From positions 1 through 54,806 of the IMG/VR virus record IMGVR_UViG_3300020205_001884: a stretch of 54,806 nucleotides of DNA; one strand, written 5' to 3'. Each line of letters begins with the position of its first letter. Positions within the stretch are counted from its first letter, which is position 1. This document shows, in pieces, positions 1,915 through 53,914 of the stretch. Source of the DNA: a virus (taxonomy: Duplodnaviria > Caudoviricetes). The translations under genes and the position numbers were made by a program. Below the pieces are notes generated by a model. That model saw nothing but the letters and a program-made list of their open reading frames with translations, was not told the origin of the DNA and searched no databases.

Positions 1915-2111
1915 TGATTGTTACCTTTTAAAAGCATTTGTATAATTTGCTCTAATTCTTGTACTCGTTTTTCTAAAATTATATATCTATCATTTTCTTT
2001 TTTAAACCTCTTGGCTTCAATCAATTTAGATCTATCGCATGCCAATAATGCACCCGTTTTAACATCTCGACGAACATCATCTCTACCAGTAATGGAGATT
2101 TTGTTGTTCAT
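1911..2111 (-). CDS. Small conserved hypothetical protein (coiled-coil C-terminus) usually found after VrlC in T4-like phages
   Basis: Pattern 'VRRDVKTGALL...LEKRVQELEQIIQMLL'; translationally coupled on both sides. Confidence 0.7.
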   Translation of the reverse strand: MNNKISITGRDDVRRDVKTGALLACDRSKLIEAKRFKKENDRYIILEKRVQELEQIIQMLLKGNNQ

Positions 2112-18500: not shown

Positions 18501-21500
18501 CAGATTCATTGCTACCCCAAGTTACTGCTTGTCCATCGTCAAGAAGTGCTATATAATGTCCGGCACCTGCTGCAACTTTTTTGATAGTTCTTCCCTTGAA
18601 AGTTACTTGTTGTTGGAAAAATGCAGTACTTCTTTCAACTTCTCCATCAACTCCACCCCACCCAACAACTGTACCATCTGTTTTAAGCCCAATAACACTA
18701 CCATATCCAACAGCTATTTGTTTGTATTTTAGAACTGCGAGATTATTCGGTGGTAATATTGGATATCCAGCATAAGTAGACGAAGCTGTTTGCCATTTTA
18801 ATGTACCATCTGCAAGTGTATAGAATACTACATTTGACCATCCAGTAGCTACTGAACTATAATCAGTACCGTTTGTATTGTTTACTCTATAGTCATATGC
18901 AAGATCGCTACGACCACCTTCGCTTCTGCTTCTTTGCCAGAAACTACTGTATACCGGAACAATAGGTAGCAGTTCACCGGGGAGTCTTACTTGTTCAGAG
19001 GGGTTAACGGAAACCATAAACTCCATAGGAGTATCTTTTCCCTTGGTATCATCAAATGGTTGATGAATTTTTACAGTTGTTCCGTCTTCTAAAGTCACAT
19101 AAGGAAACCATGTATTTCTTTGAGTTGCAGATGTATAGTATGTGGTGTTATTTGGGAATGGTTGTTCTGGACGCAAAGGCGATCCCCATTCTCCAGATTT
19201 GGACATTTGTTCTATCCATTCTGCAGCATGAAGAGGTGGTGCTTGATAACAACCTTGTCCAGAATAGCAAGCATCTCCAGTACACAATATTTGTGTTTGA
19301 TTAGGTGCATATTCTATTTCTACTGGTATAAGTCGACCATTAGTATCTAATCGGTAATTATTTTTATAATACCAGTTAACATTTCCAGAATGATGACCAG
19401 AACTTTCAATTCTGGCATCTGTCATATACTGCAATCCACCAATAGATTTCCCATTTGCATCAAAACCAACACCAGAACCGAAATCGTGAGTAGCTCCGCC
19501 AAAAATGGCATGTTCTCTTGCAATAAGACCTTGTGCTACTGTATTTCGTAATAAAGTAACATATTTGAATTCGGTAGTTTCTTGTTGTGTATTTTCATCT
19601 AGAATATAGATTGGCGGAACTGAAGTGGTTGTGGTTAACCAGGCACCTCTAGATGCGCTGTCGAGAGTAATTGTTTGAGGAATATCTGTTCGTGATGTAG
19701 ATGCTCCGAATGCTCTTAATGTCACAGAAGCTGATGGTTTGGCTGTAATTCTCCACAAATATTGATTTGTGCTTAGAAGTCTACCACCGGAAATAATAAC
19801 ACTAGAATTTACTGCTATTCTGTTTACAGCAGTTGGCTGAGCGCGAGAATTGCCACTAGTGACTCTCCATTCTTCAAGAACATTGTGCATATCCAATGTG
19901 CTTTGTGGATTTTCTGGAGAAACTCCATTAAAATAATTAATAAATTTAGCACCATGCAAACAGCTATGTAATATTATTTCTTTCCAATATTGCTTTCCAA
20001 CATCACCTGTCAATGGACCATATCGATAACGATCAACATCTCCACCAACATCTGTGCTTACAATCCACGGCGCAAATCTTTGCCATGCACTAGAATCGCT
20101 TCTATGAATAGCTTTCATTAGTCTCATGTCTAATAAGAAAGCCAACCAAGTCGGACTACTGTATCGTAATGTTGTAGCTGGTGGTGTGGAATTTGGATCT
20201 ATACTAGAAAATAAATATCGCTCATCATCAGTAGTTGGATTTATGATATAGCTAAATGTTCCAAATGCATTTGGTGTAAGTTCTCCATAGAATGGAGGAG
20301 AAACAAGTACATCTAGATTTGCTCTCATCGGAGATGCTTTCCATCCATATCCATTATCAACATACTCAAATTCTACATCATTTAAGGGATAGTTATAATC
20401 TTGTGTCAAACCAACATTGCTGAAATTAGCAGATGATAAAGCATCTAACCACATGTATGGTCTGTAGAAAGAACTTCCCCAGTCTATAACAACTCCGGTC
20501 CACGCACGAGTTGCTGCCTGAGCATTTGAATTTCCCCAAGGGAATACAGCCATATTGTTTTGTGAATTTTCAGTATCTCCAAGATATCCATACATTGGTG
20601 ATAATGCTTGTGCGGCTGTAGTGGCAGTAGGAACATACCAATTATTGGAATATATAGAAAATAAACTTCTCTGTCTATTGTCTGTTTCTGTTTTGCATAA
20701 ATTATATCTATCCATGAAATCCTGATCTATAGTTTTATCATTTATAGGATTCACAGTTGAAGTGAATCTAGGATCTGTTACTATCGCTTCTAGTGCATCT
20801 GGATCTGAAAAATCTCTTTCACAACTGTAATGACTGTTGCCTACTGCACATGTTTGCCAAGTTTGTTGTGTATAAGATTCTGGAACATAGTTTACAGTAG
20901 GAATTGATTGGAAAGGTATATTGGAAAATCCTGGAATATCTCGTTGTATTTGTCTCAGACCTTCTCCGGTTAATCTAAAATCCAATCCCGGCACATTTAC
21001 AAAGTGTGTCATATCTGTAGATTGGAACTCACCCTCAACAATAAATCCACCAATGGTAGGATTGCTTCCAACAATACCAGAATGAGAAATTCTAGCACAA
21101 TTAACAAAAACATTATTTATTGCTTTTGTTTTATATAAGGTTGCATTTGCTACATTTACGGTAATTGTTCCGGGAGTTCCTGGAGTAGAGCTAGAAAAAT
21201 TATATATTTCATGTAGCCAAGGTGCGCGATTTTTGTACTCAGGTGTGCGAATATCAGACACAGCCATCACTCCTTTGAAGCTTAAACTTGGATATGCAGT
21301 AGGACCAAAAGTCATAGTCCAAGGACTGTATCCTGTGACTGGTATAGTTGTTATTCCATCGCGATCTAATGGACCGCCAGATTCATACCAAGGATAAGCG
21401 TCTGTATTAATTACATAAAATGCCTGTCCAGATAATGATGTGTTCCACACTGTTTGATTATTTAAAACATCTCCATATCCAGTTGGACACTCTATAAAAA

Positions 21501-40846: not shown

Positions 40847-42193
40847 TTATTGTTTAAAAATGTTAGAAAAATATTCATCTACTTTGTGTTCAATATAATC
40901 TAATTGTTCATTAGTTATAACTGGACTTGTCCCTAAGAAAAAAGTATCAGTTGTAACTTTAGTTGCAACTGGAAATTTTAGTTTAGGATTTTCACTATAA
41001 ATTGATTGATATGCTGGTTGAAGTAATAAGTTACCACCAAAATAATTTCTAGTTTGTATTTTACTATCTTCTAAGTACATAGTAAAGTTATTTCTTTTTA
41101 AATTCACTCCATCTCTTATTGTTAATGGAAAGGCAAACCAAGATGGATTTGCCTTTTCGGTAGTCTTTGGGAGATGAAACAAATTTTCATATTTTGCAAA
41201 AATATTATAAAGTCGTTTAAAATTATTTTTTCTAATCTGTATCATGTTATCTAATTTATCTAACTGAACTAACCCAATAGAGGCTTGCATTTCTAGTGGT
41301 TTTAAATTATATCCTATTTCTTCATAAATGTATTTGTGATCCATTATTTCATCTGGAAGAGATGGCAACCAATTACTAAATCGTTTTTTACATAAACCAT
41401 TTTTTAAACATGATGCCGCTTTTCCAGAACAATAACAACCACGCCCCCATTCTCTTAAACTTTTAATAACAACTTCCTGTTCTTTGCTTTTACATGCAAC
41501 AAAACCCCCTTCACCCATAGTCATATGATGTGCGGGATAGAAGGAACAGGATGACATTTCTCCAAAAGAACCCAACAATTTACCATCGTATGTACTACCC
41601 AGTGCATCGCAACAATCTTCTAATAAAATTAAACCATATTTTTTTACTATATGATTAACTTCATCCATGTTGGGAGGGTTGCCTAAGACATGAGCAAAAA
41701 ATAAAGCACTTGCACCATCCTTTGCGGCTTTTTCTAATTGCTCTATATTTAAATTTAATGTATCTATTTCTATATCAATAAAAACAGGAATATATCCATT
41801 TTGTAAAATAGGATTTACTGTAGTTGGAAATCCGGCAACAGGTGTTATTATTTTAGAACCTTTTGGTAAATTATAAAGGTTTTTAGAACCAAGCCCGCTA
41901 ACAATTAATAAATTTGCGCTAGAACCACTATTAGTCAATGCACCATAGGGCTTTCCCAATCTAGTAGAAAACTTATTCTCAAATCTGATACCATTTTCTC
42001 CCAGAGCCAACCAACCATCTAATAAAGTTTCAATAGCACTAATGTATTCGTTTTCATCAAATAACGAACCAGAATATTGAACAACATCTACACCGGGTGT
42101 CCATTTTTTTTGTTTATTTTCTAATTTAAACTGGACCAATTCTTTTATTTTTTCTCGTAAAATCTCATTAAAATTAATATTTATTGGAACCAT
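40847..42193 (-). CDS. rfbH: NDP-4-keto-6-deoxyglucose 3-dehydratase (RfbH/DdhC, DegT family)
   Basis: Motifs 'NSGSSANL', 'AHVLGNP', 'EDCCDALG', and 'SFYPAHHMTMGEGG' (His instead of Lys), plus the Cys cluster 'WGRGCYC...C.....C' and 'DHKY.Y..IGYNLK'. Confidence 0.9.
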   Translation of the reverse strand: MVPININFNEILREKIKELVQFKLENKQKKWTPGVDVVQYSGSLFDENEYISAIETLLDGWLALGENGIRFENKFSTRLGKPYGALTNSGSSANLLIVSGLGSKNLYNLPKGSKIITPVAGFPTTVNPILQNGYIPVFIDIEIDTLNLNIEQLEKAAKDGASALFFAHVLGNPPNMDEVNHIVKKYGLILLEDCCDALGSTYDGKLLGSFGEMSSCSFYPAHHMTMGEGGFVACKSKEQEVVIKSLREWGRGCYCSGKAASCLKNGLCKKRFSNWLPSLPDEIMDHKYIYEEIGYNLKPLEMQASIGLVQLDKLDNMIQIRKNNFKRLYNIFAKYENLFHLPKTTEKANPSWFAFPLTIRDGVNLKRNNFTMYLEDSKIQTRNYFGGNLLLQPAYQSIYSENPKLKFPVATKVTTDTFFLGTSPVITNEQLDYIEHKVDEYFSNIFKQ

Positions 42194-43077
42194 TTGTAAA
42201 TACCTTTTGGATGTTTAGGTGTCCATCCCATATTGTTTATTTTATCAGTGTTCAGTGCATATCGAAGATCTTGTCCCCATCTATTAGGAACAAATTGAAT
42301 AGTGCTTTCGTGATCTACATTATACCAATCTAAAATACTTTTAACAACATTTATATTTTCAATTCTATTTCCACTTCCTATATTGAAAATTTCATTCTTA
42401 ATATTTTTCTCTATTAAAAATAATATAGCATCTGCATTATCTTTTACATAAATCCAATCCCTAACATATGAACCATCTCCATGAATTGGTATCTTTTTAC
42501 CATCTTGTATACATTTGATAGTTTTTGGTATTAATTTTTCTTCATATTGGCGTTCGCCGTAATTATTAGAACTTCTTGTTATAATGTAGTTAATACCATA
42601 AGTTCTGTGATATGCCAATACTAGTGCTTCGGCAGAAACTTTAGTTGCAGAATACGGATTACTTGGTTTTAAAACATCATTTTCCGCAAATTCACCATCA
42701 GATCTGTCTCCATATACTTCATCTGTACTTATTTGAAAAAATAAAGGTCTTTCATATTCTGGTTTACCTCTGCATATCTCCAACAAGTTATGAACACCTA
42801 AAATATTACTATTAATGAATGGTTTTGTATCGTTAATGGAATTGTCAACATGAGTTTCAGCTGCAAAATTTACAATAACATCACATGTTGGTATATTTTT
42901 AAGTTCACATATATCGACCTTCAAATGTTTATAGTTTGGATCGTTGTCGAATGGTAAATTATGATTAGAACAATAGCCCATAAAATCAATATCAAGTACA
43001 GAATGTTTATTTTTTAAACATGCTTCAATAAAATGACTTCCTATAAATCCTCTTCCGCCTGTTGTTATAATTTTCAT
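42181..43077 (-). CDS. rfbB: dTDP-glucose 4,6-dehydratase (RmlB/RfbB)
   Basis: Motifs 'TGGRGFIGS', 'NFAAETHVDNSI', 'ISTDEVYG', 'PSNPYSATK', 'NNYG.RQY.EKLIP'. Confidence 0.9.
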   Translation of the reverse strand: MKIITTGGRGFIGSHFIEACLKNKHSVLDIDFMGYCSNHNLPFDNDPNYKHLKVDICELKNIPTCDVIVNFAAETHVDNSINDTKPFINSNILGVHNLLEICRGKPEYERPLFFQISTDEVYGDRSDGEFAENDVLKPSNPYSATKVSAEALVLAYHRTYGINYIITRSSNNYGERQYEEKLIPKTIKCIQDGKKIPIHGDGSYVRDWIYVKDNADAILFLIEKNIKNEIFNIGSGNRIENINVVKSILDWYNVDHESTIQFVPNRWGQDLRYALNTDKINNMGWTPKHPKGIYKWFQ

Positions 43078-43931
43078 GCTAAATCCTCTATTATAGAATC
43101 AACCGATTCCAAAACTTTTATTTGTTGTTCATATCCATATGATAATAATTTTGTATTATCTAACCACATATTTTGTATTTGTACAATTTTATGAAATTCT
43201 GGTGTAGATATAGATTCTATAATGCTTTTTGAGTTTAATTTATTTTTAGCATAAAAGATCAAATCTCTGATACTCCTTGGTTCAGAATTACTAATATTTA
43301 TTATATCATTTAATGGTGCAGAATCTGTACAAATTTTAATTGCCCTAACACAATCTCGCACATCCATGTAATCACGAATACTACAACCATCGTCATATAT
43401 TTTTATATTTTCATTGTTTCTGAGATTTCCTATCATATATTGTAATGCATTCTTTTTGTTTGAAATTTTTGCATCACCTATTCCTATGATATTTGTTAGT
43501 CTTAATATTCTATAATTTAATCCAAAAGTATGACAATAAGATTTTAAAAGATTTTCTGCTGCATATTTTGTTATTGAATAGAATCCTGTAGGATTGCATA
43601 TAGATGTTTCTTTTGCAGGCAGTTCATTTGTTTTACCATATACAAACCAAGAACTAATAAAATTAAAAACAACTTGTTCTTTACTTTGTTGTTTTATTTT
43701 TTTACACTCTTCTAAAACATCTATGAGTTTAATTAAATTAGTTTCAATATCTAGATATGGATCATCGTAAACATTATAATTATCTACGGTACTAATGAAA
43801 TATAAAATGTTATTAGTTTTTGGTGTATTATCATTTCTTGGTATAGGTATGCTACAATCTGAAAATATTTTTATAAAATATTTTGCAATAAAACCAGAAG
43901 AACCATAAATTGAAAATTTTACATCATTCAT
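43074..43931 (-). CDS. NAD-dependent epimerase/reductase (extended SDR)
   Basis: Motifs 'GSSGFIA', 'FISSWFVYG', 'YSITK', 'RDYMDV.D'. Confidence 0.8.
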   Translation of the reverse strand: MNDVKFSIYGSSGFIAKYFIKIFSDCSIPIPRNDNTPKTNNILYFISTVDNYNVYDDPYLDIETNLIKLIDVLEECKKIKQQSKEQVVFNFISSWFVYGKTNELPAKETSICNPTGFYSITKYAAENLLKSYCHTFGLNYRILRLTNIIGIGDAKISNKKNALQYMIGNLRNNENIKIYDDGCSIRDYMDVRDCVRAIKICTDSAPLNDIINISNSEPRSIRDLIFYAKNKLNSKSIIESISTPEFHKIVQIQNMWLDNTKLLSYGYEQQIKVLESVDSIIEDLA

Positions 43932-43934
43932 AAA

Positions 43935-44726
43935 TTAAAAAGTAACAAAAGGTTCCACTTTAGTATAACGATAATCGTGAACTGTTTCAGTTTTATTATT
44001 AAATTGGGATCTTGGTTCTCCATTAAAACCTACTGCAAAACACATTTCAATATCTTGAACCCAATTTCTATCGTCTTTATGGCCCCAAGATGTAACTTTT
44101 TTAATCATTTCTTCTTTTGTTCTAACCCAACTATAATGATGAAACATTATGCTATCATTTATTCCTGTAGTATATTTTTTGCTTGTAGGATACTGTTCAG
44201 TGTCAAACCAAAACCATCTTTCTGCACCTGTCTCTAAAGAATGTGTATTTATTGCTTGCATATTATGAAAAGATCCACAAAATTCATTAACAGTAGCTCT
44301 CCAGTAAGGTTCTCTGTAATACCAATAACAAGCAAAATTCATATGATCATAATTTTTAATATCAGCCGAAGTCTCCAACCATTCTTTGAATAAATTTCCA
44401 TCAACAATTTCATCTACATCTAAAAATAAAATATTATCAACTTTTCCTACTAAATGATCATATCCCAAAATACGACATTTATTGTGTCCATCTCTTGGAG
44501 CGTGTTTGAAATTTTCTTCAAAAGGAAACGATATGAAAGTAATGTCTGGATTTTGCAATTGAAATTGCTGAATTTTAGTCAAATCTTGCAAATTGCCATT
44601 AAATAATTTTTCGCAAAAAGTAATTACAATATTTTTACTAAATTTTCTAACATTGTCTATACAAGGTTTTAAAAATTTATGATCGTGTTCGCAATAATTG
44701 ATTACAGTGCCTATATTTTTGGACAT
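43935..44726 (-). CDS. Glycosyltransferase, GT-A (GT2-like)
   Basis: DxD motif 'LFLDVDE' and 'HHYSWVR'. Confidence 0.6.
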   Translation of the reverse strand: MSKNIGTVINYCEHDHKFLKPCIDNVRKFSKNIVITFCEKLFNGNLQDLTKIQQFQLQNPDITFISFPFEENFKHAPRDGHNKCRILGYDHLVGKVDNILFLDVDEIVDGNLFKEWLETSADIKNYDHMNFACYWYYREPYWRATVNEFCGSFHNMQAINTHSLETGAERWFWFDTEQYPTSKKYTTGINDSIMFHHYSWVRTKEEMIKKVTSWGHKDDRNWVQDIEMCFAVGFNGEPRSQFNNKTETVHDYRYTKVEPFVTF

Positions 44727-44749
44727 AATAACTCTTTCTAATTAGTTTA

Positions 44750-45409
44750 TCATAATTTTAATATAAAATTCAAATCTCTTCCAGTTCCATGTCCCGTTCC
44801 ATGAAATCCAAACACTTTATTTATGTCATCATTTAACTCAGTGTTCATTTCTAAAGAAAATTTACTTGCCAGTTCAACCGGAGCAAATTTAATTCCATTT
44901 TTCTTTAATACTTCATCAAATACATAACACAACTGATAATCTTCGTTTCCTTCAATATAATTCAATTTGGAAGCTTCTTGCAAGAATTTTTTACTGCGTA
45001 AACAAAAACCACCATTTCCAACTCTTTTATTTGGATCTACCCAATTAAAATATAAAGGCCAAGGAGCACCAATATAATCATATTGTAAAAATTCATCTGT
45101 CCATAAATGTGGATTGATTATAAATCCATCAGTATGGTATATTATACAATACTCAGTATCAACATAATCGTTTAATTTTTTAATACAAAAACGACTATAT
45201 TCTTGGTATGACGGAATATGAACATTATGTATCTCTATGCTAGAATTTAGAGATACTGCTCCAGAAAACCCTGTTAATATTTTTACTTTACCAAAATTTA
45301 TAGATTTTAATGAATTATTTGCTATTTTAAATAAAGTATCAAACTCATTTTTATCGGGGGTTCCGCCTATACCTATCAAAGTTATATTATTTAATGTTAT
45401 CATTGACAT
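44750..45409 (-). CDS. DUF5672-like GT-A protein
   Basis: Motifs 'DGFI.N...W.DEFL.YDYIGAPW', 'VGNGGF.LRS', 'ED', 'FGFHG'. Confidence 0.8.
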   Translation of the reverse strand: MSMITLNNITLIGIGGTPDKNEFDTLFKIANNSLKSINFGKVKILTGFSGAVSLNSSIEIHNVHIPSYQEYSRFCIKKLNDYVDTEYCIIYHTDGFIINPHLWTDEFLQYDYIGAPWPLYFNWVDPNKRVGNGGFCLRSKKFLQEASKLNYIEGNEDYQLCYVFDEVLKKNGIKFAPVELASKFSLEMNTELNDDINKVFGFHGTGHGTGRDLNFILKL

Positions 45410-45993
45410 GTGTATCTATATGATGCTTTGACTTTTCCCATTTGAACTAATTCAAACCCATGTTTTTCTATCAATGCTGTATGAACAACCGTGTGATCAT
45501 AATAATCTGTAATATCATCAAAAACTAAAAACCCACCACACGACATTCTATCTTTAAAAAATAAAACCTGATTATACACATCTTCTAATGTATGACGAGC
45601 ATCAAGAAAAACCATAGAGTATTTTTCATAAATTTTTTGTTTTGTTTCTTCGAAAACAGGAACTCCATCTGAAAATCGTTTAAAAAATTCAGTATCTGTT
45701 AAATTATAAAAAATAAAATTAACAGAAGTATTTTTACTTATACTATAAAGACTGGAAATAGCAGAATTTCTCATTTCATTATCGTATATACATTGTCCCG
45801 GATATGGTAATGTTCCATATGGATCTACTCCGATATGGATTTTGGGGATCGTATATCCTTGTATAATGATTTGACTACTCCCCCCTGCGCGTATTCCAAA
45901 TTCTATAGATAGTCCTTCTATATTATTTGCTGCATTAACAGCATTTTGCAAAATTTCATATTCAGACGAATCTTTTTCTAGTATAATATTCAT
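45400..45993 (-). CDS. SAM-dependent methyltransferase (TylF/Methyltransf_24-like)
   Basis: Motifs 'IEFGIRAGGS', 'GVDPY', 'VFLDARH', 'GG.LVFDD'. Confidence 0.7.
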   Translation of the reverse strand: MNIILEKDSSEYEILQNAVNAANNIEGLSIEFGIRAGGSSQIIIQGYTIPKIHIGVDPYGTLPYPGQCIYDNEMRNSAISSLYSISKNTSVNFIFYNLTDTEFFKRFSDGVPVFEETKQKIYEKYSMVFLDARHTLEDVYNQVLFFKDRMSCGGFLVFDDITDYYDHTVVHTALIEKHGFELVQMGKVKASYRYTCQ

Positions 45994-46616
45994 TGTGTAT
46001 TTCCTAATAATTTTTTATTTTGATAGATAAAATCCTCATGACCAAGAATGCCTTCATGGTAATGTTCTTCTATTTTAAGTATTTGTTCGAATCCTAATCT
46101 ACACAATAATATATCTATTTCTTTTTTATGAGGAGATTTGATATTATAATCAATATTTGCAGTTTCTACCTGTATATATTTACATGCCATAATTGTATTG
46201 ATTCCGCCGCTAATAATATCAAATTCAGTTCCTTGTGTGTCTAGTTTTATATACTCAAATGTTTCTGTGTGATTCTCCAATAAAGCATCCAATGTATTGG
46301 TCTGTATCTCTATGAAGTCATTTTCTGTAAAGTGTATGGTATTTTCTTTGTAATACGATGATCCTGTTGATATTAAAAATAAAGGATTTATATAAAATTT
46401 TACTGTTTTTATAGTATCAGATAGGCAGCAAATTTTATAATTTAAGTTTTTATCTTTTAAAAAACATTCACAATATGGATTTGCTTCTATAGATAATGTT
46501 TGTCTATTATTCCCACGCACCTGTTCCGCCCATTCTCCTGTATTTGCGCCAATATCTAGAATTCTTGTTATATTATGTTCATTTAAAAAATTTAGAATTG
46601 TAGTGTATGGTGTCAT
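45990..46616 (-). CDS. FkbM-family methyltransferase
   Basis: Motifs 'ILDIGANTG.W', 'IEAN', 'TLD', 'IKLDTQGTE'. Confidence 0.85.
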   Translation of the reverse strand: MTPYTTILNFLNEHNITRILDIGANTGEWAEQVRGNNRQTLSIEANPYCECFLKDKNLNYKICCLSDTIKTVKFYINPLFLISTGSSYYKENTIHFTENDFIEIQTNTLDALLENHTETFEYIKLDTQGTEFDIISGGINTIMACKYIQVETANIDYNIKSPHKKEIDILLCRLGFEQILKIEEHYHEGILGHEDFIYQNKKLLGNTQ

Positions 46617-46628
46617 TATAATTTCCTA

Positions 46629-47600
46629 TTACTGTAAAAATACTGTTTTAAATTTCTCCATAACAAGTTTTGGAGAAAATTTAGTTATGAGTGAATGATA
46701 ATCTTGAACAAATACACCATCCTGTAACATATTGAATTTCTCATATAGATCATCTTGAGATGTATATATTAAGTCCGAGGATTGTAAAAGTTGTACATGA
46801 TGAAGATCGTGTCCTTCATTAAACGCAAAGACTGGTTTATTGTGATATAAAAATTCGCAAATTGACAATCCAAAAGATTCCCCATCGGATCTAGCATGTA
46901 TCATAGCATCGCACATATTTATGAAATTACTTTTAGCAATCTCATCAACAACAGAATCACAAAATATTACTCTATCGTGTTGTATAAACTTATTAGTATT
47001 TAAAAAAACAAAATAACAATTAGAATTTGCTGTCAGATACTTTAATATTGTTTGATATACTTCTGGTATATCAAATGTATCAGCACCACCATATCTTCCT
47101 ATTACTAGAGCATTTTTTGGTATTCCCAATAATGATCTGGTATATTTTTTTGTTTCTGTGGGAGTAACCATACTAACAATATGAGGAACCCAGTTTGTTT
47201 TTACTTTATATTTAATATTAATAGTATTTGATAACCATTCTGATATGTACGCATAACATGACCCGTGTGGCTGATATTCTTGAAATACTGCATGGATTAT
47301 ATTTTTTACATTACTTAGATAATTATCATTATTGCCAGCTTTTATAAAATAAACACAATCAATATTGTTGTTATTGCAGATATAATTTACATAAGATATC
47401 CCCTGTTTAACTCGACTATATGGTAATACTTTAAATCTTGTATTAAATTTTGATAAAACTGCGGAATTAATTTCATTATCTGTATTATAAAGAATAACAC
47501 TTTCATTATTTAATATTTCTTCATTATATTTGGCATAATTAAATGTTGAAACTTCTGTTCCTCGCTCATTTAATTGATTGCAGTGAAATAATAATTTCAT
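46629..47600 (-). CDS. Glycosyltransferase, GT-B (GT4-like)
   Basis: Motifs 'ERGTEV..F.YA.YNE.IL', 'GRYGG', 'CDAMIHAR..GESFGLSICE'. Confidence 0.8.
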   Translation of the reverse strand: MKLLFHCNQLNERGTEVSTFNYAKYNEEILNNESVILYNTDNEINSAVLSKFNTRFKVLPYSRVKQGISYVNYICNNNNIDCVYFIKAGNNDNYLSNVKNIIHAVFQEYQPHGSCYAYISEWLSNTINIKYKVKTNWVPHIVSMVTPTETKKYTRSLLGIPKNALVIGRYGGADTFDIPEVYQTILKYLTANSNCYFVFLNTNKFIQHDRVIFCDSVVDEIAKSNFINMCDAMIHARSDGESFGLSICEFLYHNKPVFAFNEGHDLHHVQLLQSSDLIYTSQDDLYEKFNMLQDGVFVQDYHSLITKFSPKLVMEKFKTVFLQ

Positions 47601-48442
47601 ATTAGTTTTTGTATGTTTGCAAATATCATATCGTCTGCAGATTCCATGTTACATACTATTTCAAAATTGGTTTTAATTGCATTTATTTTTGATTGGTAAA
47701 GATCAGCAGATAAAGTGGAAGGATCAAAATTTTCGGTAAACATGATAATGCCATCTAAATCAAAATATTTACCTATTTCATCTGTACCAAAATAAACAGG
47801 AATAACTCCGTTTGCAAAACAATCAGTTATTTTTTCAGTAAAATAACAATTATATTTTATATTTTCTATGGCAATACTAAAATAATATGGTTTCATTGCC
47901 TCTGTTTTTGGTTTATGATGATAATGTGATCCGTTATGTGTTCCTATAGAATTGGCACCAAAAACATTTCCATATAAATCTACTTTTGATTTTAATTTAT
48001 GAGCACATGATAATCTATATCTATGACCTTCTGTCATAGAATTGTTTGAACATAAAAAAGATACAAGTTTTGTTTTATTATGAATACCAAATTCTGATTT
48101 TGGTGTCCAAGGTAAATTGCTTCCAGCAAAATTAAACACAAAAAAATTACGATCTAAATTTATCAATTCTTGATCACAAGTAAATATGTTGAAATATGAA
48201 TTTTTATAAAGATCTAAATTTTGTTTAATACTTTCAAAAATTTGTTGTTTTACAGTTCTGGATTCACAAAACCAACCAAATTTTTTATTATGCTTATTTG
48301 TTTTGGTTCCCTGAACTAAAGCAGAATCCATGTATACTTGTATCTCAGAATTTTTATTTGTCCAATTAAATGATTTAGGAGTCAATGTTCCGCAAGATGA
48401 ATAATTAATATTAAAAGGATTTCCTATTGCTTGTATTTTCAT
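47597..48442 (-). CDS. GT10-like (alpha-1,3-fucosyltransferase motif) glycosyltransferase
   Basis: Motif 'YYFSIAIEN....YFTEKI.DCF..G.IPVYFG'. Confidence 0.8.
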   Translation of the reverse strand: MKIQAIGNPFNINYSSCGTLTPKSFNWTNKNSEIQVYMDSALVQGTKTNKHNKKFGWFCESRTVKQQIFESIKQNLDLYKNSYFNIFTCDQELINLDRNFFVFNFAGSNLPWTPKSEFGIHNKTKLVSFLCSNNSMTEGHRYRLSCAHKLKSKVDLYGNVFGANSIGTHNGSHYHHKPKTEAMKPYYFSIAIENIKYNCYFTEKITDCFANGVIPVYFGTDEIGKYFDLDGIIMFTENFDPSTLSADLYQSKINAIKTNFEIVCNMESADDMIFANIQKLI

Positions 48443-49047
48443 ACTCTTCCCCGTTTTCTAATATTAAATTCTATATGTCTTTTATCCATTGATACAGAAT
48501 TGCCCATTAATATTTTAACATTTGGTAAATTTTTAGGACTTGCATATGACCAATGATATTCTCTAATTTTAATATTTTTATGTTTTTTATAATCATTATA
48601 AAGATCTATCAAAATTAGATGATCCAGATCTCTGATCGCTTTTTCAGCACCATCAATCCAATCATTGATAAAAGTTATAGATTGTTGTGTATTATTAAAA
48701 TATATGAAACAAGATTCTGGTATTATTTCAGTTGGTCTAGTTTCTCGTATAGCAGCACAAATATCAAAATTATTATCAATAAAATCATGAGGATAGTTTC
48801 TAATATGACAATCAATATCCATCCACACCACTGGGGTATTTAATTGTTGCATTTTTTCCAAAATATATCTTGGTTTTCTTAAACAATTTTCCATATAATT
48901 TGTTTTTGTTGGCAATTCATCTATAGAATAATTTATAGACACATTATCAAGTTCTTCTTTTAATCTCAAATAATTATCTTTGTAATAAGTAGATATTGCT
49001 GGATTACTATCAGAATAAAAACTTATCAAGGTATATGGCACATTCAT
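48439..49047 (-). CDS. Nucleotide-diphospho-sugar transferase (GT-A), paralog 1
   Basis: Motifs 'ISFY', 'NCLRKP.YI', 'VWMDID', 'IYFNNT', 'W...DH'. Confidence 0.7.
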   Translation of the reverse strand: MNVPYTLISFYSDSNPAISTYYKDNYLRLKEELDNVSINYSIDELPTKTNYMENCLRKPRYILEKMQQLNTPVVWMDIDCHIRNYPHDFIDNNFDICAAIRETRPTEIIPESCFIYFNNTQQSITFINDWIDGAEKAIRDLDHLILIDLYNDYKKHKNIKIREYHWSYASPKNLPNVKILMGNSVSMDKRHIEFNIRKRGRV

Positions 49048-49628
49048 ATTATTTTTCCTTCATTTTTTCTTCTATTTATTACCAGTTGTGTATGTTCTTT
49101 TTTCCCTAAAGTTTTAGACATAATAATTGTTACTTTGGAATCAGGTCTAATTGAACAAGTAGAATCTGAAAAATTTTTTCTTGTTTCGTTTGGTGGTGTA
49201 TACCACAGTTCCTTCAAAACTGGATGATCTAATTCTGGTTTATTTATGGAACACCCATCAATCCAAGTATTAATAAATTGTTTTGATTTTTGTGTATTAT
49301 TAAAATAAATCAATGCACTTTCTGGACAACCATTCGATTTAATGACACATGCTATATCTTCATCAATATTATCCATTTCCATAGGAAGAATATTTACAAT
49401 AGAATCGGCATCTATCCATATTATTGGTTCATTAAATTTTTGCAAACAATCTGAAATAAATTTTGGTTTTCTTAAACAATTTAAAGCATAACTTCCCAAA
49501 TTAGGCAATTCCTCTATATAAATTTTTCCGCCTAATTTTTCTATTGTATTTTTTAATTTGAATGCACTATCTTTATAAAAAGTGCATGGAGGTATATCAG
49601 AATAATATGATACAAACATTGTATTCAC
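49044..49628 (-). CDS. Nucleotide-diphospho-sugar transferase (GT-A), paralog 2
   Basis: Motifs 'VSYY', 'NCLRKP.FI', 'IWIDAD', 'IYFNNT', 'W...DH'. Confidence 0.7.
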   Translation of the reverse strand: MNTMFVSYYSDIPPCTFYKDSAFKLKNTIEKLGGKIYIEELPNLGSYALNCLRKPKFISDCLQKFNEPIIWIDADSIVNILPMEMDNIDEDIACVIKSNGCPESALIYFNNTQKSKQFINTWIDGCSINKPELDHPVLKELWYTPPNETRKNFSDSTCSIRPDSKVTIIMSKTLGKKEHTQLVINRRKNEGKII

Positions 49629-50254
49629 TTTATTGTTCCCTTCAGTCTTCGACTTGCTTGGGTGTGTTCAATCACTACGGGCTTTTCCGGCTCAAACCAT
49701 TTGCAGTCAAATACCTTGCAATATGATTGTGGAAGATTGAAAGTACGCAAACCTTTGTTGTCAAATTCTTCCCATACTTTTTGCAAGCTTTGCTGTTCCC
49801 AGACCGTAGGATTTGCTTCGCTTTGTTTTTGCCATGCGTGAATCAAGTCTATAGCAATCTGGGTATTGTTGAAAAACAATGTACCACCTGCCAACGCTTC
49901 ATTGCCACGAGTCCAAGGCTTTAGATGCTTGTTTCTTTCTTGATTCCAAACATTAGGTATCCAATAGCAACCAAAATCATAATTCTCTAATTCATCGAAT
50001 AATTTTGGATGTCCCACAAATCTAGCATCAGCATCAGTCCATACAACTCCACATTTCAATTCATGTATTGCACTTAATGTGACTTGTGCTTTCATTGTGC
50101 AGTTGTGAACCCAAGACTTTTTACTTGGCATTTCATATGATTTGAACGGATATTGTGTAGTAGTATTCTCTTGTAAAAAACTATGACAAGATCTTCTCCA
50201 TGCCACAGCTTCTTCTTTATATTCTGGCGTATAAAATGTTATAACTGAAATCAT
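49625..50254 (-). CDS. Nucleotide-diphospho-sugar transferase (GT-A), paralog 3
   Basis: Motifs 'ITFYT', 'W..NC..K', 'VWTDAD', 'GTLFFNNT', 'WEQ..LQ', 'LPQSYC', 'VIEH.QAS'. Confidence 0.72.
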   Translation of the reverse strand: MISVITFYTPEYKEEAVAWRRSCHSFLQENTTTQYPFKSYEMPSKKSWVHNCTMKAQVTLSAIHELKCGVVWTDADARFVGHPKLFDELENYDFGCYWIPNVWNQERNKHLKPWTRGNEALAGGTLFFNNTQIAIDLIHAWQKQSEANPTVWEQQSLQKVWEEFDNKGLRTFNLPQSYCKVFDCKWFEPEKPVVIEHTQASRRLKGTIK

Positions 50255-50877
50255 GATCTATTCACCTTCTGTTCAACAGATGCTAGTTTATGTAGGATGA
50301 CTGCACCATGTCTTCCATGCAATCTATCTATCTGACAATACGATTGCGGTAGGAACTCTGTAATAGGTTGTACATCGCACCAGGCTTGCTGCAGCGTCCA
50401 TTGATCCCATGCACGGGGATCTTGCTGCTTTAGATCAATCCAACGATCACATAGCTTTATAGTATTCTCACACACTCTCATAAAGATTGTGCCAGAATTA
50501 AACCAACAAGCAGGTGTTGTGGCTGGCCAGTTAGTGGGTAAATGAATTCGTTCTCTACCAGCCGGTACTTTGCTTTTACCGCCTGGTTCTCCCCGAATCA
50601 TGAATTCTTGATTACCCAATAAAAATAAATCTGGATACTTTATAATCTGGGCATCGCTGTCGATCCAGATAAGACAATCTCCATGTGCAGATTCTAATAG
50701 CATTTCTTTTATGAATTCTGCTTTCAATGCACAATTCTCTACCCAAGTACCTTTGTCTTGTTTTTGTTTAATTACAAAATCGAGAGAGTGTTTCTTCAAA
50801 CTACTCTCCAATTCTTTTATTAATTGTGGATATATCCCATTCGGTGTATAGAACGAGATAAATTTTAACTTATTCAT
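50251..50877 (-). CDS. Nucleotide-diphospho-sugar transferase (GT-A), paralog 4
   Basis: Motifs 'ISFYT', 'W..NC..K', 'IWIDSD', 'NSGTIF', 'WDQ..LQ', 'LPQSYC', 'VILH.LAS'. Confidence 0.72.
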   Translation of the reverse strand: MNKLKFISFYTPNGIYPQLIKELESSLKKHSLDFVIKQKQDKGTWVENCALKAEFIKEMLLESAHGDCLIWIDSDAQIIKYPDLFLLGNQEFMIRGEPGGKSKVPAGRERIHLPTNWPATTPACWFNSGTIFMRVCENTIKLCDRWIDLKQQDPRAWDQWTLQQAWCDVQPITEFLPQSYCQIDRLHGRHGAVILHKLASVEQKVNRS

Positions 50878-51755
50878 TTTTTGCGTTTATGCATCATATT
50901 AAAGTACACACCCATGTCTAATTTAGGCTTGGGTTTTTCTTTTTCTTTTTGTCTAGTTTCTCGCATCAGGCGAAAATAATTATTCATATTATTGTCCTGC
51001 TCCGATTGTTTATTCTTAGGAATTTCTCGTGGTTGTTCTGCTTGATATGATCCTATATCAAATTTTATTTCTCGAAACATCACATTTTCCGAAACTTCTG
51101 GAGTATATTTTGGAACTCCCATATTTTCAAAAGCAGATCCACACTCCCAAGAATACCAATTATATCCTTTGTTTTTTGCAACAGGATACCATGTCTGTAA
51201 AAATGCTGCAGTCTGATCTAATGTCTTTTTAAAATTGTGTTCTTTCTTTTTATCGAATGCTGCTATGGGATATGAATACTTTGATTCAAAATTATCAGCA
51301 GTAAGATCATTCCCAGCAAATATTAAATTCTTGACACCAGACACATGCAACCATTGTATTGCGAAAGTCAGTGTTTTATGTGGTCCACGAAGCAAGGGAG
51401 TAGATGGATCAAAAAGCAGTGATTCATATTTTTGATTCGCTTCTCTTCCCTCATGATATGGATGTTGTATCACATGCTTACCGGGAGTTCTAGTAGTTTT
51501 GTTTGGTACTACCTTTATTATATCCGGATCATCCCAAGCAGTCTTTCCTTCTTCCCCGTGCATCTCATTCAAATTATCTGCAATGAACCAATAGTTCGGT
51601 TTCTTTATTGATCTTATTGTTGTGCTTATTGCACAGACTGGCAATCCAAGAGAAAACACATCAACTTTATTGAGAGAAGGCCCAGAGCAAGCAACTATAC
51701 ATGTATCAGTTGGGAATAAGTAACTCATTGTTGTTTTCCTTGTAATACTCATCAA
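50874..51755 (-). CDS. Maf/DUF115 (CstII-like fold) putative glycosyltransferase; start probably at 51728 (MSYLF)
   Basis: Motifs 'CIVACSGPSL', 'P.YW...D', 'AIQWL...G...LIFAG.D'. Confidence 0.6.
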   Translation of the reverse strand: MMSITRKTTMSYLFPTDTCIVACSGPSLNKVDVFSLGLPVCAISTTIRSIKKPNYWFIADNLNEMHGEEGKTAWDDPDIIKVVPNKTTRTPGKHVIQHPYHEGREANQKYESLLFDPSTPLLRGPHKTLTFAIQWLHVSGVKNLIFAGNDLTADNFESKYSYPIAAFDKKKEHNFKKTLDQTAAFLQTWYPVAKNKGYNWYSWECGSAFENMGVPKYTPEVSENVMFREIKFDIGSYQAEQPREIPKNKQSEQDNNMNNYFRLMRETRQKEKEKPKPKLDMGVYFNMMHKRKK

Positions 51756-52389: not shown

Positions 52390-53001
52390 TCAGTCTAGGG
52401 TGGGAGTTCCACCTTGTATTCTCATCTTAAATTTAGAACCAATGCCACTCTTTTCCACTTGATCGGGGGCAAATGTTCTGATGTCATTGTGCGAATCTGC
52501 TCCAGCTGGAATGTATCCAATTGGTGAAGCAGATCGATTGCCTTTGGAATATGGCATTACAGCAATCATTCCGTGTTCGCCAGGTATCATGGATGCTATC
52601 CTAGTCGTCTTCATCTTCTTACCACTTTTACCACTACCACTTACAAGATAATGTCCATCTGTATGAGGAACAATATAATGTCTGTCTAGTTCGCCTTCTT
52701 GATCTGCACCAAATACTGGTTCCTTTTGGAGATAGACTGCAACACCTCTACCACCTTGAAGATGTGTGTTTATATGTCCATGAAGCTTTTTAGAAGACTC
52801 ACTTCTTGCTGCGCCTGTTACGCTACCAGCAATATCCTTGTTGGTCAACTTAACAGGATGTAACAGATCTATATCTTTTGCAAATGTTCCATCAGGCTTT
52901 TTGGCAGCGGTGTAAGCCGCTGGAACCGAACGCTTTGCTTCTTCTAATTTTTGAGCAATGAGTTGGGTTACTTGTCTGAGTGTAAAGAAATTGATTGCCA
53001 T
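52390..53001 (-). CDS. Hypothetical basic protein under a late promoter
   Basis: 203-aa ORF with an AGGAG Shine-Dalgarno and a CTAAATA box at 53030-53036; no recognisable family. Confidence 0.7.
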   Translation of the reverse strand: MAINFFTLRQVTQLIAQKLEEAKRSVPAAYTAAKKPDGTFAKDIDLLHPVKLTNKDIAGSVTGAARSESSKKLHGHINTHLQGGRGVAVYLQKEPVFGADQEGELDRHYIVPHTDGHYLVSGSGKSGKKMKTTRIASMIPGEHGMIAVMPYSKGNRSASPIGYIPAGADSHNDIRTFAPDQVEKSGIGSKFKMRIQGGTPTLD

Positions 53002-53061
53002 ATGCCAGTTCTCCTGTGAATTATATTACTATTTAGCACGAATAGAACTTCTATTGGCATA

Positions 53062-53093
53062 TATAAAGAACCGGACTCTTTGCAGAGCCCGGC
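53062..53093 (-). terminator. Intrinsic terminator of the anti-23S sRNA
   Basis: Minus strand GCCGGGCUCU-GCAA-AGAGUCCGGU-UCUUUAU: a 10-bp stem with 2 G.U pairs that form only on this strand, a GNRA loop and a U-rich tail. Confidence 0.8.
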
Positions 53094-53201
53094 CCCCCTG
53101 ACGGTCTAAAGGTAGCGAAGTTCCTATAACGCATGAATAGCGTAATCAAGTTCGCAACTGTCTCCGAATCCTGACTCCCGGTATTCAATCCCTCAAACCA
53201 C
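53063..53201 (-). ncRNA. Putative structured small RNA complementary to 23S rRNA H69-H71 (domain IV)
   Basis: Plus-strand blocks TGACGGTCTAAAGGTAGCGAAGTTCCT / GCATGAATAGCGTAAT / CTGTCTCC / GACTC are collinear with 23S ~1917-1943 / 1964-1979 / 1990-1997 / 2004-2008 (recalled E. coli sequence). The promoter and terminator define the opposite strand as the transcript. Confidence 0.75.
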
Positions 53202-53204
53202 ATG

Positions 53205-53212
53205 TATTTATA
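53205..53212 (-). promoter_or_regulatory. Perfect T4 late promoter TATAAATA driving the sRNA
   Basis: Plus-strand tatttata at 53205-53212; no annotated ORF lies between it and the terminator. Confidence 0.75.
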
Positions 53213-53219
53213 AAGGCAA

Positions 53220-53285
53220 TCATCTAGATCTTGCTGAAATTCTTTTAGCTCTGCGTAGATTTTCCTTATCCGCAGAATTAATCAT
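53220..53285 (-). CDS. Putative 21-aa basic peptide MINSADKENLRRAKRISARSR
   Basis: GGAG Shine-Dalgarno just upstream of the ATG (ttGGAGatattATG); lies directly downstream of a sigma70 promoter. Confidence 0.5.
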   Translation of the reverse strand: MINSADKENLRRAKRISARSR

Positions 53286-53295
53286 AATATCTCCA

Positions 53296-53326
53296 AATAA
53301 AAAGAGAACGAGGTTAGTCGTTCTCT
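53296..53326 (-). terminator. Intrinsic terminator for the 145-aa gene transcript, abutting the -10 box of a sigma70 promoter
   Basis: Minus strand AGAGAACGA-CTAACC-TCGTTCTCT-TTTTATTT. Confidence 0.75.
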
Positions 53327-53354
53327 ATTATACTGGTATTCTTATGTAAGTCAA
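53327..53354 (-). promoter_or_regulatory. sigma70-type promoter TTGACT-16 bp-TATAAT
   Basis: Minus strand TTGACTTACATAAGAATACCAGTATAAT; same architecture as the gp32 promoter. Confidence 0.7.
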
Positions 53355-53357
53355 GGT

Positions 53358-53407
53358 GGTCTTAATAGGTCTTGAAGGGCCTTAGTAGGACTACACAGGT
53401 ATGTAGA
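53358..53407. repeat. Five degenerate 10-bp direct repeats
   Basis: ggtcttaata/ggtcttgaag/ggccttagta/ggactacaca/ggtatgtaga, with GG recurring exactly every 10 bp. Confidence 0.5.
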
Positions 53408-53426
53408 ATTTTAAAGAAGTGGCCTC

Positions 53427-53864
53427 TTATGGAGTTTTTCTTAAGAGATCTGCTTTTTCTTTTCTCATTGCGGCCAATTGTTTAGCTGCGGCTCGTTCGT
53501 TGGATGCTGCTTTTATTTTTGCACATTCAGCCTTTGCTTCTTTCAATTGATCTGCTACAGCGGCTTCGTCGGGTTTACCTTTTCTTCTCAGTAATTCCTT
53601 TTCCAAAGAAGTAACTCTGGCAGAACATTGTATAACTGCATTATCTAACATTTCTGCGCCTTGTTTTCGTTTCTCGACTGCTTCCGTTCCACCTTGAATA
53701 ATAGCACCAACACCAGATCCGCCAATTACTTTGCCGGCACTGCTTAGCAGACCTTTACCTATTGTGCCCAATGCACCTTTCATAAATGTGCCAACTTCTT
53801 CGTCAACAGATTGATCACAATTGCAGTCTTCATTTGAATTAATGTATTGGGAGAATTTCTTCAT
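53427..53864 (-). CDS. Hypothetical protein; candidate head internal (injected) protein
   Basis: N-terminus 'MKKFSQYI...VDEE' resembles the T4 capsid-targeting leader; a perfect TATAAATA lies 8 nt upstream (53873-53880). Confidence 0.6.
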   Translation of the reverse strand: MKKFSQYINSNEDCNCDQSVDEEVGTFMKGALGTIGKGLLSSAGKVIGGSGVGAIIQGGTEAVEKRKQGAEMLDNAVIQCSARVTSLEKELLRRKGKPDEAAVADQLKEAKAECAKIKAASNERAAAKQLAAMRKEKADLLRKTP

Positions 53865-53872
53865 AGTGCCAG

Positions 53873-53898
53873 TATTTATAACAAAAGATTACTACATA
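53873..53898. promoter_or_regulatory. Divergent late promoters TATAAATA (-, 53873-53880) and CTACATA (+, 53892-53898)
   Basis: Late-box motifs placed just upstream of the two divergent ORFs. Confidence 0.6.
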
Positions 53899-53914
53899 AT
53901 TTGGAGAAATTCAA

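Follow-up and report, generated by a model that had tools for sequence, protein, structure and literature searches.

A conserved, self-closed small RNA of T4-like phages that is antisense to 23S rRNA and may pair with the ribosomal RNA of its host

We suggest that an uncultured T4-like lake phage encodes, on the minus strand of the DNA analysed here, a conserved and self-closed small RNA of about 140 nt that is antisense to 23S rRNA of the host type and that would pair with the host 23S rRNA. Based on the sequences of the RNA, of its relatives and of candidate host 23S genes, we put the probability of this reading at about 0.55. The RNA lies in a window of 54,806 nucleotides, i.e. the whole stretch of DNA that was analysed, from the IMG/VR virus record IMGVR_UViG_3300020205_001884, which is estimated to be about 25% complete. 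The gene set of the window is of the T4-like myovirus type and includes several baseplate wedge and hub proteins, a tail tube protein, a head closure protein, a DNA end protector and a gp32-type single-strand-binding protein. The small RNA is located in the 425-nt gap between the minus-strand ORFs 52390-53001 and 53427-53864, and the features of this locus are as follows.

53205..53212, minus strand: TATAAATA box, likely T4-type late promoter, upstream of the small RNA
53058..53201, minus strand: whole predicted small RNA, about 142 nt, between the box and the terminator, with both ends predicted
53190..53201, minus strand: 5' arm of the closing stem P1, GUGGUUUGAGGG, the only part that is not colinear with antisense 23S
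53101..53112, minus strand: 3' arm of P1, CCUUUAGACCGU, which, apart from two changes, is antisense to helix 69 (3' strand)
53062..53098, minus strand: G+C-rich terminator hairpin after the closing stem, followed by a U run (as far as 53058)
53030..53036, minus strand: CTAAATA box, after the terminator and 29 nt before the start (53001) of the next ORF
52390-53001, minus strand: ORF downstream of the small RNA

TATAAATA, which we take to be the T4 late-promoter consensus, occurs three times in the window against 9.8 copies expected, and one of these copies precedes the small RNA. More generally, the intergenic NTAAATA boxes of the window all (9/9) face a start on the same strand 7-271 nt downstream. 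On the strand of the RNA, the sequence signals thus predict both a promoter and an intrinsic terminator and, with them, the ends of the transcript, and the ORF at 52390-53001 is predicted to have a promoter-like site of its own in the CTAAATA box. Because the TATAAATA box lies before the element, the hairpin and U run lie after it and the next ORF has its own box, the element looks like a transcription unit of its own. T4 late promoters presumably start transcription 6 nt after the box; with such a start, the closing stem would lose its first two pairs. Within 52400-53900, contigs of three metatranscriptome runs cover 52898-53046 and 53321-53579 only, both outside the small RNA.

The surroundings of this locus hold further observations. 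A near-consensus sigma-70-type promoter on the minus strand (TTGACT-16-TATAAT, 11/12; window 53303-53354) abuts the terminator hairpin of the upstream gene by one base. At 40847-51755, about 12 minus-strand sugar-modification genes stand in a row, among them an aminotransferase, two nucleotide-sugar epimerase-like proteins and at least two paralogous nucleotide-diphospho-sugar transferase-like proteins (PF03407). The structural region contains two very large minus-strand ORFs, one of 2942 aa (15523-24351) with faint PHROG hits only, and one of 1952 aa (2108-7966) that matches large families of unknown function.

Relatives of the small RNA were collected by pattern scans of public viral and metagenome contigs, and 93 loci with 72 distinct full-length copies were retained after removal of three coding chance hits and one true 23S gene. 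By sequence, these copies would represent a family of small-RNA genes of uncultured T4-like phages with at least 72 distinct members. The family does not coincide with a catalogued one: a search of the whole window with Rfam 15 at the gathering threshold gave the tRNA only and no match for the small RNA, the region 52900-53500 at E-values up to 10 gave only RAGATH-6 (E 9.3), outside the element, and eight related loci at E-values up to 1 gave only tRNAs and weak tRNA look-alikes. Likewise, the window region had no blastn match among phage records or E. coli genomes, blastn of three family queries against 50,697 phage records gave only true 23S genes in contaminated records and short chance matches, and the short form of the RNA had 0 copies in one genome per species from 185,579 species.

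Several lines of evidence identify the minus strand as the probable RNA strand. For 53101-53201, the predicted folding energy of the minus-strand RNA is -31.0 kcal/mol (z -2.51), and 2/200 dinucleotide shuffles are as good; that of the plus-strand RNA is -18.8 kcal/mol (z -1.26), and 25/200 shuffles are as good. Among 24 distinct transcripts, the antisense-of-23S strand is the more stable one in 18, with a mean z of -1.81 versus -0.92. An NTAAATA box lies upstream in 52/72 distinct relatives, compared with 14/72 for the opposite strand of the same stretch, and a terminator-like hairpin with a U run lies at most 80 nt away in 64/72, compared with 8/72 in the other-strand reading. All 233 tRNA genes (233/233) in the 44 of 93 loci that hold any tRNA are on the strand of the RNA, as are six predicted tmRNA-like genes among the 93 loci, and the nearest flanking ORFs are co-oriented with the RNA in 55/71 cases (hand count). 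Because folds, boxes, terminators, tRNA orientation and flanking ORFs agree, we conclude from these signals that the minus strand is the RNA strand, in line with the preliminary description of this DNA, which regarded the minus strand as the functional one.

The tRNA and tmRNA-like genes adjoining the small RNA would form an island of translation RNAs. ARAGORN predicts permuted tmRNA-like genes in L010 (8766-9170), L029 (3465-3869) and L053 (7570-7944), and also in L085, L089 and L096; their tag peptides end in AMAA or LAMAA, and the genes adjoin tRNA clusters on the same strand as the small RNA.

The closing stem was the central element of the fold proposed in the preliminary description, and it stands. 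Positions 53201-53190 pair with 53112-53101 over 12 contiguous pairs, seven of them Watson-Crick and five G.U, exactly as claimed. The fold is also strand-specific in the proposed manner, with the 5' end paired to the antisense 3' part: the closing duplex of the window, to which that of the relative L007 is identical, is predicted at -14.5 kcal/mol on the minus strand versus -4.5 kcal/mol on the plus strand. In a first set of relatives, an end-to-end duplex forms in 18/18 distinct arm pairs, at -7.6 to -15.8 kcal/mol, and it is weaker on the sense strand (mean -8.5 versus -11.2 kcal/mol). Moreover, arms pair better with their own partners than with those of other relatives. In the first set, own arms give -11.24 and foreign arms -10.19 kcal/mol, with 338/10000 permutations reaching the observed total, and in the 72-sequence set the values are -12.55 and -11.25 kcal/mol, with 0/5000 permutations reaching it; both tests ignore kinship. 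Compensatory pairs are seen as GGUCC/GGACC versus GGCCC/GGGCC and as GUCAC/GUGAC, and the seventh pair of the stem is U-A in some relatives versus G-C in others.

When the whole model of the preliminary description is placed on a MAFFT alignment of 22 distinct sequences, 81.1% of cells are paired, compared with 35-46% for slid partners. On the same alignment, no covariation beyond column make-up was found, as column shuffles give 81.4%. The model does not beat column shuffles because the 3' partners hardly vary and, as a consequence, support for the stem rests on conservation, on the few compensatory pairs and on the permutation tests. From these we conclude that the closing stem is probably real and conserved, with modest covariation support, and that the end-to-end stem is predicted to recur in all lineages examined that keep the anti-helix-69 part.

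The relation of the RNA to 23S rRNA can be seen already with the E. coli gene. The plus strand aligns locally to rrlH (23S about 1917-1996) with a score of 76, compared with 51.5 +/- 4.7 (maximum 67.5) in 200 shuffles. When the RNA is aligned to a 23S of the host type, its positions 13 (about) to 103 follow the antisense of 23S (about 2018-1917) in colinear order, with helix 71 missing, and the 12-nt 5' arm alone falls outside this colinearity. Within the colinear part, four blocks (8 + 17 + 19 + 9 = 53 nt) are perfectly complementary to the 23S of genomes that mostly carry the label Phycisphaerales (Planctomycetota). The blocks used below are the following.

53109..53125, minus strand: block A (17 nt), perfectly complementary to host-type 23S about 1927-1943, with UUCCU of helix/loop 70 in its target
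53130..53148, minus strand: block B, 19-nt exact complement of host-type 23S about 1960-1978, containing UAUUCAU at 53133-53139
53157..53165, minus strand: block C, exact complement of the host-type 23S sequence ACUGUCUCC

To find candidate hosts, a single genome from each species was scanned for true 23S genes with A at position 1969, which gave at least 120 matches. Among the 120 matches listed, 97 are labelled Planctomycetota, mostly Phycisphaerales; all four blocks of the window are exact in 37/120, and among the matches listed 30 of these 37 are Planctomycetota. An order-level sample of 151 genomes from the order of one matching genome, 78 of which have a readable 23S in this region, gave 79 23S matches, and the exact state of blocks A and B of the window is present in 26/79 (hand count, including the unpublished genome G108; 25/78 without it). 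These matches suggest that the departures of the RNA from E. coli 23S are not noise and that the blocks match one host lineage. Because of this rRNA signature alone, we infer that the host is probably a planctomycete of the Phycisphaerales.

The blocks are also conserved within the family. One base of block A varies, being C in 36/72 and U in 36/72 relatives, and no other base of this block does; the variable base faces 23S position 1938, which is itself G or A among candidate hosts. Block A is intact in 17/17 loci from a scan that was anchored only on block B and the stem arm. Block B has at most five changes in 70/72 distinct relatives and, by eye, its substitutions are a mix of wobble-keeping and pair-breaking ones. 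A search of the window for a second copy of the block A target gave one match with three mismatches, which is at chance level.

Other members of the family keep more of the rRNA than the RNA of the window. A helix-71-like hairpin is present in some of them, antisense sequence of helices 72-73 in some, and in many the stem is followed at once by antisense sequence of the helix 69 loop. The forms found with the block A anchor (L047, L050, L060, L062, L067, L087, L091, L096, L097 and L099) retain a covarying helix-71-like hairpin and have a block B unlike that of the lake forms, and some of their contigs are taken as marine. These block B differences suggest tuning to other host groups. A viral contig, L066, carries at about 14376-14567 a nearly unaltered antisense 23S segment with helix 71 intact, which stops after the helix 69 strand and lacks a clear terminator; this copy may be a recent capture or an assembly chimera. 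One lineage, that of L012 and its relatives, has a possible RNA-binding neighbour two genes downstream of the RNA: the predicted product (321 aa; L012 5447-6412) carries a WYL_2 Sm-like SH3 domain (E 2e-11), and other lineages do not share it. Finally, the group L100-L219 (e.g. L102 611-669) consists of abundant viral contigs of 80-160 kb, mostly from one metagenome, in which a 16-letter block B motif lies by chance inside a conserved coding gene.

Inside the closing stem, the fold that we predict differs from the one first drawn. All four helices of the preliminary description can be drawn in the window, and the general idea that the parts diverging from rRNA supply the intramolecular partners holds, in that the 5' arm and UGAAUA are such diverged stretches. 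The inner helices are not upheld as drawn. Two segments are central to the revised fold.

53182..53187, minus strand: UGAAUA, which both the minimum-energy fold and the RNAalifold consensus predict to pair with UAUUCA
53113-53122, minus strand: AACUUCGCUA, predicted unpaired segment of block A

According to the preliminary description, ACGC/GCGU closes a loop in which UAUUCAU is open. For the subgroup of the window, the RNAalifold consensus instead has UAUUCA paired with UGAAUA, with all six pairs kept in 5/5 sequences, one of them as G.U in one sequence, and this helix continues into a second one in which the pairs vary between A-U, G.U and G-C; the minimum-energy fold of the window likewise pairs UAUUCA with UGAAUA at 53187-53182. 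The ACGC/GCGU pairs are kept, from the innermost outward, in 64, 59, 49 and 21 of 70 relatives without real compensatory change, so that the fourth pair is found in 21/70. The small GAGU-CAGG-AUUC hairpin can be written in the window and is not conserved: GAGU/AUUC is paired in 43% of cells among 22 distinct relatives and cannot form in the nearest, L003-type relatives. GCGAA/UUCGC is compatible with pairing in 85.5% of cells (22 distinct sequences), and in relatives GCGA is instead the tetraloop of a hairpin with a compensatory change of CAGU/ACUG versus CUGU/ACAG. For block B and its own upstream partner, no covariation was detected (-8.82 versus -8.70 kcal/mol; 496/5000 permutations). Thus, of the proposed closed multibranch RNA, the closure by the stem is retained, the multibranch layout is not, and the molecule is better described, on the predicted folds, as one long imperfect arm.

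The site offered for pairing would also be a different one. AAYUUCGCUA, within GGAAYUUCGCUACC, has a mean unpaired probability of at least 0.5 in 60/72 distinct RNAs, while the core of block B reaches this value in 17/70 only; block A is more exposed than block B in 64/70, and block B is predicted to be mostly paired. In other words, block B would be largely paired with diverged, sense-like stretches, which leaves open an internal loop on the 3' side, GGAAYUUCGCUA, and the segment that is predicted to be both exposed and invariant is AAYUUCGCUA, the complement of 23S helix/loop 70. The idea that UAUUCAU serves as the toehold for invasion of 23S is not supported, since this heptamer is predicted to be paired in the window and gives -3.1 kcal/mol with 23S on its own. 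By comparison, a duplex of -34.0 kcal/mol is predicted for naked RNA between block A plus the stem arm and positions 1918-1943 of E. coli 23S, at an opening cost of 11.2 kcal/mol. A toehold mechanism that starts from a site other than UAUUCAU is therefore plausible on these models.

We propose the following mechanism. The small RNA would be transcribed late in infection from its late-type promoter and would pair with host 23S rRNA on free 50S subunits or with nascent rRNA. Pairing would start at the open loop of block A, which is complementary to the single-stranded helix/loop 70, and would then spread into the G.U-rich closing stem, where the 5' arm would be released by strand displacement. 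The outcome could be that subunit joining is hindered, that the rRNA is marked for cleavage or that the site is shielded. A review describes UUCCU of helix/loop 70 as single-stranded and as cut by MazF-mt6 in 50S subunits and not in 70S ribosomes, and a mutation in helix/loop 70 as abolishing subunit association (PMC5408214). According to a second review, translation and growth of E. coli are blocked by a PNA directed against helix 69 (PMC12828698).

In its fullest form, this proposal describes a self-masked antisense RNA in the tRNA/tmRNA islands of T4-like phages of planctomycetes and other aquatic bacteria that would, late in infection, dock on helix/loop 70 and helix 69 of free 50S subunits by its open loop, unzip its own stem to give a duplex of about 26 bp and, in this way, control subunit joining or shield the site from rRNA-cutting defence toxins. 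We put this complete scheme forward tentatively, as one that we would not back at even odds. Doubts about stoichiometry and access arise from the great abundance of 23S rRNA and from the position of this region, most of which is hidden within 70S ribosomes. In addition, an exact likeness to host 23S would also be expected from simple conservation of a captured fragment.

The main rival to pairing with 23S takes up this last point. It holds that a real folded RNA acts together with a protein or another RNA, and that its 23S likeness is the trace of a captured fragment, the bases of which were kept for this other role. That block B is mostly buried in the helices of the RNA itself is in line with this idea, as is the result of the column-shuffle control, which gave no excess of covariation; the variants of block B include changes that would break pairs with 23S, without a clear bias for sparing wobble pairs, and both conserved blocks contain a YCGCUA core that could be a repeated protein-binding site. 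However, the invariant blocks match the 23S of one host lineage exactly, including positions at which it differs from E. coli, and the variable base in block A mirrors a polymorphism of the hosts. Nor did the search for a partner encoded nearby identify a neighbour protein common to all lineages: the flanks differ between lineages, and PHROG and Pfam matches of the flanking proteins were uninformative. Overall, we find an action without 23S pairing doubtful, while taking it seriously.

The remaining explanations concern the position, the strand and the origin of the element. It is quite unlikely that the element is a cis-acting leader or attenuator of the gene at 52390-53001 (minus strand), with the hairpin and U run as a regulated terminator: it is co-stranded with this ORF and directly upstream of it, with the terminator in between, but the ORF has its own CTAAATA box after that terminator, and in other lineages the RNA precedes unrelated genes or tRNA genes. 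The plus strand does resemble 23S and keeps UUCCU of helix/loop 70, and its product could then imitate 23S helices 69-72 in the sense orientation and serve as a decoy that draws off a protein or toxin recognising this part of the ribosome. This strand folds worse, as exemplified by the closing duplex, and terminators, promoter-like boxes and all the tRNA genes point the other way, which makes a sense decoy very improbable. Still more improbable is a functionless remnant of host rRNA DNA that the phage has acquired. The colinearity with 23S, and the nearly unaltered antisense piece in L066, would be expected of such a fragment, but not at least 72 distinct copies in many phage lineages in which blocks A and B are fixed while the variable parts have diverged, and in which copies have acquired a promoter-like box, an added 5' arm and a terminator.

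An RNA that pairs with 23S would have its closest counterparts among structured antisense RNAs. CopA/CopT of plasmid R1, RNA I/RNA II of ColE1 and seed-type sRNAs are trans-acting antisense RNAs in which a short open segment makes the first contact and pairing is then extended. Like these, the phage RNA appears to come from a stand-alone gene with a promoter-like box and an intrinsic terminator; it is predicted to be folded, to leave a short conserved stretch next to a helix unpaired and to be complementary to one defined target over a long distance. However, its candidate target is rRNA, while theirs is an mRNA or a replication primer, and its complementarity is divided into four blocks over about 100 nt of the target and is partly masked by its own sense-like arms. 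In kind, the molecule would be a structured antisense RNA, and what is new is the target class, the block-wise layout and the self-masking. We know of no bacterial or phage small RNA that acts by pairing with mature or nascent 23S rRNA, and of no chaperone or partner for a phage antisense-23S RNA. A full-text literature search, with subscription journals largely outside its scope, did not yield any description of a phage-encoded RNA antisense to rRNA.

Box C/D guide RNAs of archaea and eukaryotes also pair with rRNA, through antisense elements of 10-20 nt. The antisense stretches of the phage RNA are longer and more numerous, and by eye it contains neither a C box (RUGAUGA) nor a D box (CUGA); to our knowledge, the partner proteins of box C/D RNAs are not bacterial. 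Among phage RNAs, rnaC and rnaD of T4 (species 1 and 2) are similar in being small RNAs beside the tRNA genes of T4-type phages, on the tRNA strand and of unknown function. We rejected them as relatives, because their complementarity to E. coli 23S (39.5 and 38.0 versus shuffle means of 39.6 and 39.4) is at chance level and, by eye, they share no sequence blocks with the phage RNA. Ribosomal protein leaders that mimic rRNA, and the 23S-methyl motif, are non-rRNA transcripts with rRNA-like sequence, which is sense and binds protein. Such a sense mimic was rejected as a match, because folds, tRNAs, boxes and terminators indicate that the transcribed strand here is the antisense one. With regard to the site, the anti-helix-69 PNA (a synthetic antisense agent) and the cleavage of helix/loop 70 by MazF-mt6 and MazF-mt3 resemble the proposed mechanism in that they show that this 23S region can be reached in free 50S subunits and attack on it stops translation or subunit joining (PMC12828698, PMC5408214). 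The PNA is man-made and MazF is a protein toxin, and neither is a natural viral RNA.

If the RNA pairs with host 23S as suggested, phages would be able to take over translation through an RNA as well as through the proteins known for this, and the RNA would represent a natural, RNA-based handling of ribosomes that is absent from the literature searched. A widespread family of RNAs that matches, base for base, the rRNA of one host lineage at the subunit interface would also provide a sequence-based link between uncultured phages and their hosts. Moreover, the RNA could be a natural template for antisense inhibitors of the ribosome, and its predicted fold would show which bases are offered first.
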